Shown: positions 1 through 800, counted from the stretch's first letter. The stretch is DNA of 800 bases from Escherichia coli (GCF_003334255.1 NZ_QOWU01000186.1); one strand, 5' to 3'. Numbers and translations are program-made. The notes: a model not told the origin generated them from the letters alone.

Positions 1-800
1 CAGGTCTCGCCCAGCGTGGTGTTCACAAAGGTTTTCAGGCCGTTGGGATCTTTCAGTGCATCCAGCCAGTCATAGACAATCTGTACCCAGGTGGTGAACG
101 GACTGTACGCCGTCCAGATATGGAATGTGATGGAGCGCGGCGGCGGAATTTCATTATCCGCGGCGCTGAAAAACGTCAGACCGTCGCGGGTCCACATCCC
201 CGTGTTTTCACAGATCCACCGCCCGTTGCTCTGGTCCAGTTCAGACTGATGGATCACGCAGCCATGATGTTCACAGAGGTAGAAAACACTTTCGGGACTG
301 TCCTTCTCCCATTTAAGGCCAAAAGGCGTGGACTCATCGCCAAATTTCAGATACTGCTCCTCCCCACAGTGCGGGCAGGGCACATAAAAACGCATGAAAT
401 GTGCCGACTCGTTGGCCGCTTTTTCGATCTGGCAGGAGCCTTTTATTTTTGGCGTCGAGCCGCGAATGGATTTTGGCCATACCGAGCCCTCAATACGCTT
501 ATCCCCCAGCAGGGTTGGCGAGCCCTCTTTTTCGACATCCGGCTCGAATGAGGAAAGTTCGTCATAGCAGACCACATCCACTGATTTTTCACGGTAGTTT
601 TTGGCGGCAGCGCCGCCCAGGCACCAGAAGCCCACACCCGATGAAAAGCGTTTCAGCGTGATGGTATTATCACGATGTTTACGTCCCAGCCAGGGAGAAA
701 GTTTTTTCAGGCAGGGAACATCGCGAATCGTCGCCTCCACGTGAGACTTCATAAAATCTTCAGCGGCAGAATCCGTGGGCTGAAAAAGCAGACTGTTTCG
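1..800 (-). CDS. A: Phage terminase large subunit, lambda gpA family (DNA-packaging ATPase region); internal fragment, 5' and 3' ends both outside the window
   Basis: Seen in sequence: the minus-strand frame with codons at plus coordinates 798-800 down to 3-5 has no stop codon across 266 codons, while the other two minus frames have 16 and 10 stops. From memory: the translation aligns with lambda gpA over blocks such as FMKxHVExTIRD, HRDNTxTxKRF, GFWCLGG, AKNYREKSVDV, YDEL, EGSPTxLGDKRIEGSVWPKSIRGSTPK, HFMRF, CPHCGEEQYLKFGD, TPFGLKW, VFYLCEH, TFHIWTAYSPFTTWVQIV and KTFVNTTLGET. The start codon lies beyond position 800 and the stop beyond position 1. Confidence 0.95.
258..377 (-). other. Cys4 cluster C-x2-C-x30-C-x4-C (CPHC ... 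CEHHGC), candidate zinc-ribbon-like metal site inside the terminase
   Basis: Read directly from the translation: Cys codons at 375-377 and 366-368 (CPHC) and at 273-275 and 258-260 (CEHHGC), with His at 369-371, 267-269 and 264-266. The equivalent lambda segment as I recall it is CPHC ... CEHNAC, so the four cysteines appear conserved. Metal binding is inferred, not shown. Confidence 0.5.
453..461 (-). other. Candidate ATPase coupling motif (C-motif) G-S-T
   Basis: Minus-strand codons 459-461, 456-458 and 453-455 encode G-S-T inside the block EGSVWPKSIRGSTPK, which matches lambda gpA by recollection. Terminase large subunits carry a short Ser/Thr-rich coupling motif downstream of Walker B; the assignment is by position and family knowledge only. 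Confidence 0.4.
558..581 (-). other. Walker B-like motif with adjacent catalytic glutamate of the packaging ATPase (VDVVCYDE)
   Basis: Minus-strand codons 579-581 through 558-560 translate to V-D-V-V-C-Y-D-E, a hydrophobic stretch ending in Asp-Glu. By recollection it corresponds to the lambda gpA Walker B region (VDVAGYDE, catalytic Glu about residue 179). The motif is read directly; the functional assignment is from recalled literature. Confidence 0.6.

Follow-up and report, generated by a model that had tools for sequence, protein, structure and literature searches.

Background

Lambdoid phage genomes are mosaics. Hybrids between the lambda and phage 21 terminases were reportedly the subject of earlier papers from the Feiss laboratory, and work from that laboratory is said to have established that the N-terminal segment of the large terminase determines its pairing with the small subunit. 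Viable lambda-21 hybrids are known whose crossovers lie in the terminase genes (e.g. hy51), and they have been used to map specificity domains (PMC4669245). The terminase gene of phage D2 (OM475427) has a related layout of 21, lambda and again 21 segments, which meet at codons 58 and 282. That lambdoid prophages show mosaicism inside genes is already well known, and the case described here is nothing new in kind. It differs from these examples in its parts: the lambda-21 hybrids and D2 join lambda-type to 21-type sequence, whereas the junction in our gene joins two 21-type lineages without lambda-type DNA. Literature searches for OM475427, PV340549 and PhiR12, by accession or by phage name, returned nothing relevant, and OM475427, PV340549 and the PhiR12 phages are absent from a 2025 Genome Research paper on Chi-rich lambdoid phages.

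The DNA analysed here is a single stretch of 800 nucleotides, which we call the window. The closest relatives of the terminase gene it holds are phage-21-type alleles, at 89-99% nucleotide identity in the window, rather than lambda. Phage 21 gp2 itself (OL657228 709-2637, M81255) shares with the window gene a length of 642 aa, the gene order and the Pfam architecture; the two are 91% identical in amino acids and 90% in nucleotides over the gene. Their nucleotide identity is 89.3% within the window and reaches 98-99% past codon 313. They differ toward the 5' end, where nucleotide identity is 57% in the first 45 codons, 76% in codons 99-150 and about 90% in codons 151-313, and in the neighbouring small-subunit gene, which is 510 nt long beside the window gene and 549 nt in phage 21. 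The window gene is therefore a chimera relative to gp2 rather than a simple variant of it. Its codons 1-45 are 57% identical in nucleotides to phage 21 and 60% to lambda, with a distinct N-terminus (MNISEQQLNN...); the gene has a 21-type body and an N-terminal segment of neither the 21 nor the lambda type.

Lambda gpA is the more distant of the described relatives. We used the real lambda A gene (NC_001416 711-2636) as the reference. It shares full-length homology, the Walker B Glu179, the GST at 212-214, the Cys-rich insert and the hinge with the window gene, and differs in having a different C-terminal tail, near-saturated synonymous sites and 66% amino acid and 65% nucleotide identity over the whole gene (codons 1-642). 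At the other extreme are the terminase A genes of PhiR12_1, PhiR12_2, PhiR12_4 and PhiR12_5 (PV340549 and neighbouring records), which encode the identical protein and are 99.4% identical in nucleotides in the window and 99.7% over the gene. Five synonymous changes in the window set them apart, and the exact match to the window is the prophage of E. coli 2015C-3121.

The gene and its surroundings

On its minus strand the window is open in one frame, for 266 codons; stops interrupt all the other frames. An antisense ORF of 143 aa (120-551, plus strand) was considered and rejected as a by-product of the coding strand, without support. In an Rfam scan of both strands the sole match was DicF, whose 20 bits fall short of the gathering score of 48 and are put down to chance. 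The features of the coding strand that are needed for what follows are:

1-800, minus strand: coding part of a large terminase gene (lambda gpA / phage 21 gp2 type), codons 99-364 of 642 aa
1-2, minus strand: partial codon 365 of the same gene
558-581, minus strand: VDVVCYDE, Walker B strand ending at Glu179; across 100 homologues E179 is invariant and D178 is conserved in at least 90%
453-461, minus strand: G212-S-T214, ATPase coupling (C) motif; T214 and P215 at least 90% conserved
258-377, minus strand: Cys-rich beta insert CPHC...CEHHGC with a zinc-ribbon-like look, codons 240-279, beta-strands in the AF2 model

The window matches the 2015C-3121 prophage at 100%, inside a CDS annotated as phage terminase large subunit (L001 5707-7635, 1,929 nt, 642 aa). 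The gene order there runs from lysis genes and the small terminase through the large terminase to head-tail joining (W), portal, protease, decoration and major capsid genes, and an upstream small terminase with downstream W and portal genes is annotated likewise in all 18 related loci. Pfam places GpA_ATPase (PF05876) at residues 48-293 (E=7.5e-55) and GpA_nuclease (PF20454) at residues 323-601 (E=7.6e-71), leaving a gap between the two models at residues 294-322; the window takes in the ATPase domain except for its N-terminal third and reaches just into the nuclease model. A PDB sequence search with the full protein gave no match, and structural mapping rests on an AF2 model built on 100 homologues (mean pLDDT 94.3, pTM 0.74). 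The best PDB folds for this model are the HK97, Sf6, T4 gp17 and D6E large terminases, with E-values of 7e-10 to 1e-8.

The ASCE motifs are in place in the 100 homologues, with K76 (Walker A) and T214 at least 90% conserved and E179 invariant. VDVVCYDE corresponds to the Walker B with catalytic Glu179, as established for lambda gpA, and GST 212-214 to the coupling motif; both can be read directly in the window. In the Cys-rich insert C240 and C243 are invariant, while C274 and column 277 are Cys in at least 90% of the family; the final Cys of the insert lies at 279 in both the window gene and lambda, as against the family column at 277. Every feature tested places the window gene in the lambda gpA / phage 21 gp2 family of large terminases. 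The gene is presumably functional, because its protein is 100% identical to the terminase of the isolated phage PhiR12_1, whose record gives E. coli K-12 MG1655 as host.

Patchy likeness to lambda gpA

An initial annotation, made without database searches, described blocks nearly identical to lambda gpA alternating with much more diverged stretches in part of the window, and offered lambdoid mosaicism or relaxed surface loops as possible reasons. The interval concerned and its parts are:

24-260, minus strand: the interval, codons 279-357 (79 codons), translating as CVIHQSELD...KTFV
75-128, minus strand: conserved block TFHIWTAYSPFTTWVQIV, codons 323-340, 18/18 residues identical to lambda
3-35, minus strand: conserved block KTFVNTTLGET, codons 354-364, 11/11 residues identical to lambda
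132-248, minus strand: variable stretch QSELD...PPPRS, codons 283-321, 56% amino acid identity to lambda, pN 0.34
33-74, minus strand: variable stretch YDWLDALKDPNGLK, codons 341-354, 29% amino acid identity to lambda, pN 0.57, pS 0.69

The alternation holds against the real lambda sequence, and the initial comparison was accurate for both blocks (18/18 and 11/11) and both stretches (56% and 29%). The block KTFVNTTLGET overruns the start of the interval at position 24. A runs test counted 29 runs in the interval where 37.8 were expected (p=0.023), and the stretch of 18 identical residues has p=0.002; the same test gave p=0.066 for the whole window and p=0.004 gene-wide. The patchiness of the amino acid likeness to lambda is thus modestly above chance.

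These runs of 18 and 11 residues, longer than chance would give, are the first thing that speaks for a recent exchange between a lambda-type gene and the window gene, and D2 shows that lambda/21 chimeras of the terminase gene are possible. The synonymous sites argue otherwise. In codons 323-340, where pN is 0, 6 of the 16 degenerate codons differ from lambda (pS 0.53), and in codons 354-364, again with pN 0, 5 of 11 codons differ (pS 0.59). The identical blocks were not recently exchanged with lambda, because synonymous sites differ there too. Across the gene as a whole pS against lambda is 0.62-0.89 in all segments, and the fraction of identical residues encoded by the same codon is 0.55-0.62 in the identical blocks and 0.48 gene-wide, where 0.42 is expected at full randomisation. 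That fraction rises locally at codons 331-360 (14/18, uncorrected p=0.01), which could also be read in favour of exchange, but the excess is lost after correction for about 20 independent windows.

The nucleotide comparisons agree with this. Identical nucleotide runs shared with lambda reach 20 nt at most over the whole gene, and a megablast search with the window did not retrieve lambda. Max-chi-square scans against lambda found no significant breakpoint (p=0.12 for the window, p=0.10 for the interval). Scans against mEp332 and LWY24 were likewise negative in window and interval (p=0.06-0.16 for the three genes in the interval), with the lone exception of a marginal value for LWY24 at codon 155 (p=0.04). 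Both blocks are also conserved in homologues of 30-53% identity. Recent exchange with lambda is therefore largely refuted already, and we regard it as extremely improbable. The patchy amino acid likeness to lambda is not mosaicism with lambda. For the comparison in which it was proposed, the mosaic reading falls on near-saturated synonymous sites, a shared run of at most 20 nt and the lack of a breakpoint. The uniform divergence that the initial annotation had named as refuting it is found at synonymous sites, for the comparison with lambda.

A recombination junction among phage-21-type alleles

The picture changes when the window gene is compared with its close relatives. Among 5,426 complete E. 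coli genomes, 2,047 contain matches to it, roughly 3,300 copies in all; the median number per carrier is 2 and the maximum 5. We retrieved 19 alleles for comparison. Their nucleotide identities to the window gene change in steps along the gene, as the following representatives show:

Phage 21: codons 1-45, 57%; codons 99-150, 76%; codons 151-313, 89-91%; codons 314-642, 98-99%
BEN5202 and PhiR5_1: codons 1-45, 56-63%; codons 99-150, 76-81%; codons 151-313, 91-96%; codons 314-642, 99.5-100%
U1, EC21Z151 and SCU112 (5' type of the window gene): codons 1-45, 100%; codons 99-150, 96%; codons 151-313, 95-97%; codons 314-642, 97-98%

By these per-segment identities the nearest neighbour switches between the 5' and 3' halves. 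U1, EC21Z151 and SCU112, which carry the 5' type of the window gene, are 96.8-98.1% identical to it in their 3' part (U1 and EC21Z151 96.8-97.4%). The sliding-window comparison with lambdoid terminase genes that had been proposed as a check gave sharp steps against the 21-type alleles. These steps bound the following features:

645-800, minus strand: divergent 5' patch, codons 99-150, common only to alleles with the same N-terminus
126-174, minus strand: recombination junction against the 21-type alleles, from codon 307 to codons 311-323
3-173, minus strand: first part of the 3' block, codons 308-364; the block extends to codon 642 and is near-identical among 21-type alleles

The 5' patch is 75-81% identical in nucleotides to phage 21, BEN5202 and PhiR5_1 (pS 0.60-0.73) and 93-100% identical to AR0013, CP55, SCU112, U1 and AR0085. 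A census of the 5,426 E. coli genomes for records at least 99% identical to the window found 36 for codons 99-150 (window positions 645-800), 7 for codons 166-313 (156-599) and 860 for codons 316-364 (1-149).

The junction is bounded by the last informative site of the 5' type at codon 307 (gene nt 921) and the first of the 3' type at codons 311-323 (gene nt 933-969). It lies in the Pfam gap between ATPase and nuclease, and the block with the highest nucleotide conservation in the gene follows directly downstream. BEN5202 differs from the window gene at 172 nucleotides in codons 1-307 and at 3 from codon 308 to codon 642. The 3' block shares identical runs of 171 nt with BEN5202 and 154 nt with PhiR5_1, and its pS in the window is 0.00-0.03, as against 0.35-0.73 upstream.

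Formal tests support the junction. Triplet (3SEQ-like) tests with five parent pairs gave p<=5e-5 gene-wide; restricted to the window, p was 0.0004-0.04 for four of the five pairs and 0.19 for the U1/p21 pair, and inside the 79-codon interval it was 0.02-0.09. Max-chi-square against p21 and D2, in the interval alone, placed a break at codon 314 (p=0.02-0.03). The PHI test on the 13 21-type alleles was significant for both window and gene (p<=0.001), and was not significant in the interval alone (p=0.35), where only 16 informative sites give it low power. Breakpoint tests were thus negative against lambda (p=0.10-0.12) and positive against 21-type alleles.

A reader could still hold that no recombination took place, and that all of this unevenness, phage 21 included, reflects different constraint on ATPase and nuclease halves that were inherited together. 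Pairwise max-chi-square alone cannot separate a change of rate from recombination, and the PHI result for the interval is in keeping with such a reading. Against it stands the course of pS relative to BEN5202, which is 0.73, 0.37 and 0.35 in codons 99-313 and falls at about codon 308, to 0.00 and 0.005 in codons 314-642. This drop does not come from constraint, because the 3' half has diverged from lambda no less than the 5' half has (nucleotide identity 62% against 60-74%; pN 0.27 against 0.14-0.32). The switch of nearest neighbour between halves and the triplet and PHI results for window and gene also run counter to a pure rate difference, which we think scarcely credible. There is a genuine recombination junction inside the interval, visible only against 21-type alleles. 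The suggestion of lambdoid mosaicism was therefore wrong for lambda and right for the 21-type alleles, for which a junction does fall inside the interval (triplet p<=5e-5, PHI p<=0.001). The gene is called a recombinant relative to the 21-type alleles, and the 19 alleles give no direction of transfer.

A second step lies further upstream:

600-683, minus strand: second divergence boundary, codons about 138-165, from pairwise max-chi-square

Pairwise scans against OZ121081, PhiR5_1, p21 and ETEC2265 each placed a breakpoint at codons 138-165 with p<=0.0005, and an identity step there is visible in the sliding-window and per-segment identities. The accompanying change of pS, from 0.60-0.73 to 0.17-0.37, argues for recombination at this boundary as well.

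Constraint, structure and the variable stretches

Conservation was scored in 98 independent homologues of 29-53% identity, taken from a search of 1.84 billion proteins, with the window gene and lambda left out of the scoring:

Block 323-340: family conservation 0.54, gap fraction 0
Block 354-364: family conservation 0.68, gap fraction 0
Stretch 283-321: family conservation 0.34, gap fraction 0.15
Stretch 341-354: family conservation 0.50, gap fraction 0
Gene mean: family conservation 0.45, gap fraction 0.07

N358 and L361 in block 354-364 are at least 90% conserved. Identity between the window gene and lambda tracks family conservation, with r=0.32 (p=3e-16) gene-wide and r=0.25 (p=4e-5) in the window; inside the 79-codon interval the correlation is not significant (r=0.09, p=0.42).

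In the AF2 model, with secondary structure from DSSP, block 323-340 forms a beta-strand (321-326), a loop and the start of a helix (336-346), and block 354-364 consists of helix 350-360 and the LGET segment leading into the nuclease domain. Stretch 283-321 is made of short beta-hairpins and coil after the Cys-rich insert; it spans the Pfam gap and is prone to indels. Stretch 341-354 runs from the last part of helix 336-346 through a loop into the first part of helix 350-360. The idea that the variable stretches are relaxed surface loops suits the first of these, with its hairpins and coil, conservation of 0.34 and indels, and does not suit the second, a helix-loop-helix with conservation of 0.50. 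Mapping divergence onto the model gave no general rule either, as coil is no more diverged than helices and strands in the DSSP classes (Fisher p=0.93 for the gene, 1.0 for the window and 0.48 for the interval).

The second stretch deserves a closer look, as it is here that diversifying or partner-specific selection, rather than plain relaxation, might be suspected of driving the divergence. Such selection could arise if the protein adapts to its cognate small subunit or portal, or if it evades host sensors of terminase. Codons 341-353 have the highest ratio in the window (pN 0.57 against pS 0.69), and their residues sit in regular secondary structure. Conservation of the stretch across the family is moderate, and the family consensus there (..FLxAxGDxxxLK) agrees with the window gene and leaves lambda as the outlier. 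The fold matches include a large terminase bound by the Avs3 sensor (PDB 8dgc), which shows only that such recognition exists. On the other side, dN/dS is below 1, the stretch is invariant among the 13 21-type alleles, and it is near-invariant in three lambda-type alleles, with a sole change at codon 345 of LWY24. We judge selection of this kind to be quite improbable.

Unequal purifying selection along an anciently diverged homologue very probably accounts for the patchiness against lambda. On this reading a single core strand has stayed frozen, as have the lid helices and the hinge, while the hairpin-rich, indel-prone insert and one helix-loop-helix are free to change.

Origin and meaning of the recombinant gene

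Taken together, it is very probable that the patchiness against lambda reflects constraint and that the gene is in addition a recombinant within the phage-21 allele pool, serving as a functional gpA/gp2 terminase on a phage-21-like prophage. The gene combines an allele-specific, probably old 5' part, made up of the N-terminal small-subunit-binding segment and the ATPase domain, with a 3' part that takes over between codon 307 and codons 311-323. The latter comprises the nuclease domain and the C-terminus and is near-identical in many prophages that otherwise differ. The step near codons 138-165 may mark a second and older boundary.

We infer that the exchange took place by homologous recombination between co-resident or infecting lambdoid phages. 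Partners for it are at hand, because the median carrier genome has 2 copies of the gene and the richest has 5. The crossover may have occurred in or beside tracts of high nucleotide identity, and the chimeras that survived would be those joined at a domain boundary. The Chi site (GCTGGTGG) is absent, with one 1-mismatch match against 0.83 expected.

The gene is a further documented example of a lambdoid head gene in which intragenic recombination has taken place at a domain boundary. This agrees with established lambdoid mosaicism and with the viability of lambda-21 terminase hybrids, and opens no new question. There is also a lesson of method: conserved and diverged amino acid blocks against a distant homologue are no proof of mosaicism, while synonymous sites and close relatives can supply it.

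A wider claim, which we consider doubtful, is that codons ~280-360, the transition from ATPase to nuclease in gpA-type terminases, are a recurrent and selected crossover zone. If this were true, codons 326-350 would act as a nucleotide-level 'linker', and the nuclease/portal-binding half would sweep through E. coli prophages apart from the ATPase/small-subunit-binding half. The support for it is only suggestive. Three features fall in this range, namely the junction of the window gene at codons 307-323, the lambda/21 junction of D2 at codon 282, which is inside the interval discussed above, and a drop of identity in ETEC1717 at about codons 345-360. Beside these features, in codons 326-350, three lineages that diverged deeply show unusual conservation at synonymous sites.

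Synonymous divergence beside the recombination junction

In three deep comparisons, the lowest synonymous divergence (pS) of the whole terminase gene is found in a short tract that lies directly 3' of its recombination junction relative to the phage-21-type alleles.

Window 45-119 (codons 326-350): lowest-pS stretch of the gene, from three deep comparisons

Over these codons pS is 0.45 between the window's allele and lambda, 0.25 between the window's allele and the ETEC1717 copy and 0.32 between ETEC1717 and lambda, compared with about 0.6-0.9 elsewhere, so that the tract is the gene-wide minimum in all three comparisons. 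It includes a 44-nt run at codons 326-340 that is identical between the window's allele and ETEC1717. The low divergence could be a product of optimal-codon usage, or the tract could be one that is permissive for crossover.

Overlapping this tract is a stretch that the initial annotation had singled out as diverged from lambda.

Window 33-74 (codons 341-354): the stretch called diverged, compared with distant homologues

The consensus of the distant homologues (..FLxAxGDxxxLK) agrees with the window's gene, whereas lambda KDWMKTKGDTGKRK deviates from it. Since it is lambda that is off consensus, the change is specific to the lambda lineage.

Boundaries in other terminase genes

Two further alleles change in their similarity along the gene.

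L007 (OM475427) 423-2351: large terminase of phage D2, junctions at codons 58 and 282 of the window's gene (codon 282 = window 249-251)
L013 1304-3220: ETEC1717 gene copy, 638 aa, a third lineage

The D2 gene is a clean three-part chimera, identical to phage 21 over codons 1-57, to lambda over codons 58-281 and to phage 21 again over codons 282-642. It has almost no private differences and resembles a hybrid of laboratory or very recent origin. Its right-hand junction, at codon 282, falls inside the flagged interval (window 24-260). The nucleotide identity of ETEC1717 to the window's allele is 80-86% in the ATPase part, 86% over codons 314-364 and 69.5% over codons 365-642. The fall near codons 345-360 may mark another boundary, located at the domain hinge.

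Beyond the window, the N-terminus also varies in type.

L001 (E. coli 2015C-3121 prophage) 5226-5735: small terminase gene
L001 5707-5841: N-terminus of the large terminase

The N-terminus of this allele group (MNISEQQLNN...) is of its own type, with about 57-60% nucleotide identity to both phage 21 and lambda, and its partner small-terminase gene is 510 nt long, as opposed to 549 nt in the 21-type loci. The 21-type relative PhiR5_1 has yet another N-terminal type. This N-terminal variety and the 510-nt partner gene suggest that there are additional small-subunit and packaging-specificity types.

Other features of the window

Window 258-377 (codons 240-279): Cys-rich insert CPHC...CEHHGC within the ATPase domain
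Window 120-551, + strand: 143-aa ORF, antisense to the terminase frame
Window 589-618, + strand: Rfam match to DicF RNA

The insert looks like a putative zinc ribbon. C240 and C243 are invariant among 100 homologues. The second cysteine pair, CxxC in the family consensus, is C-x4-C in both this gene and lambda. The antisense ORF has no support as a gene and probably arises as a side effect of the coding strand. The DicF match is weak, reaching 20.2 bits where the gathering score is 48 (E=0.09), and was taken as chance.

Damaged copies in other E. coli

L010 1306-3235: E. coli O157:H7 EC4115 copy, annotated as a frameshifted pseudogene
NZ_CP027587.1 2186944-2187074: partial match (H52) in E. 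coli 2013C-4974

The EC4115 pseudogene has as neighbours an ISEc8 transposase and a small-subunit gene that is truncated, and these together with the frameshift identify its prophage as decaying. The 2013C-4974 match covers just the first 131 nt of the window read in gene sense, at 92% identity, and abuts the head-tail joining gene, an arrangement which suggests that most of the terminase gene was lost there by internal deletion.
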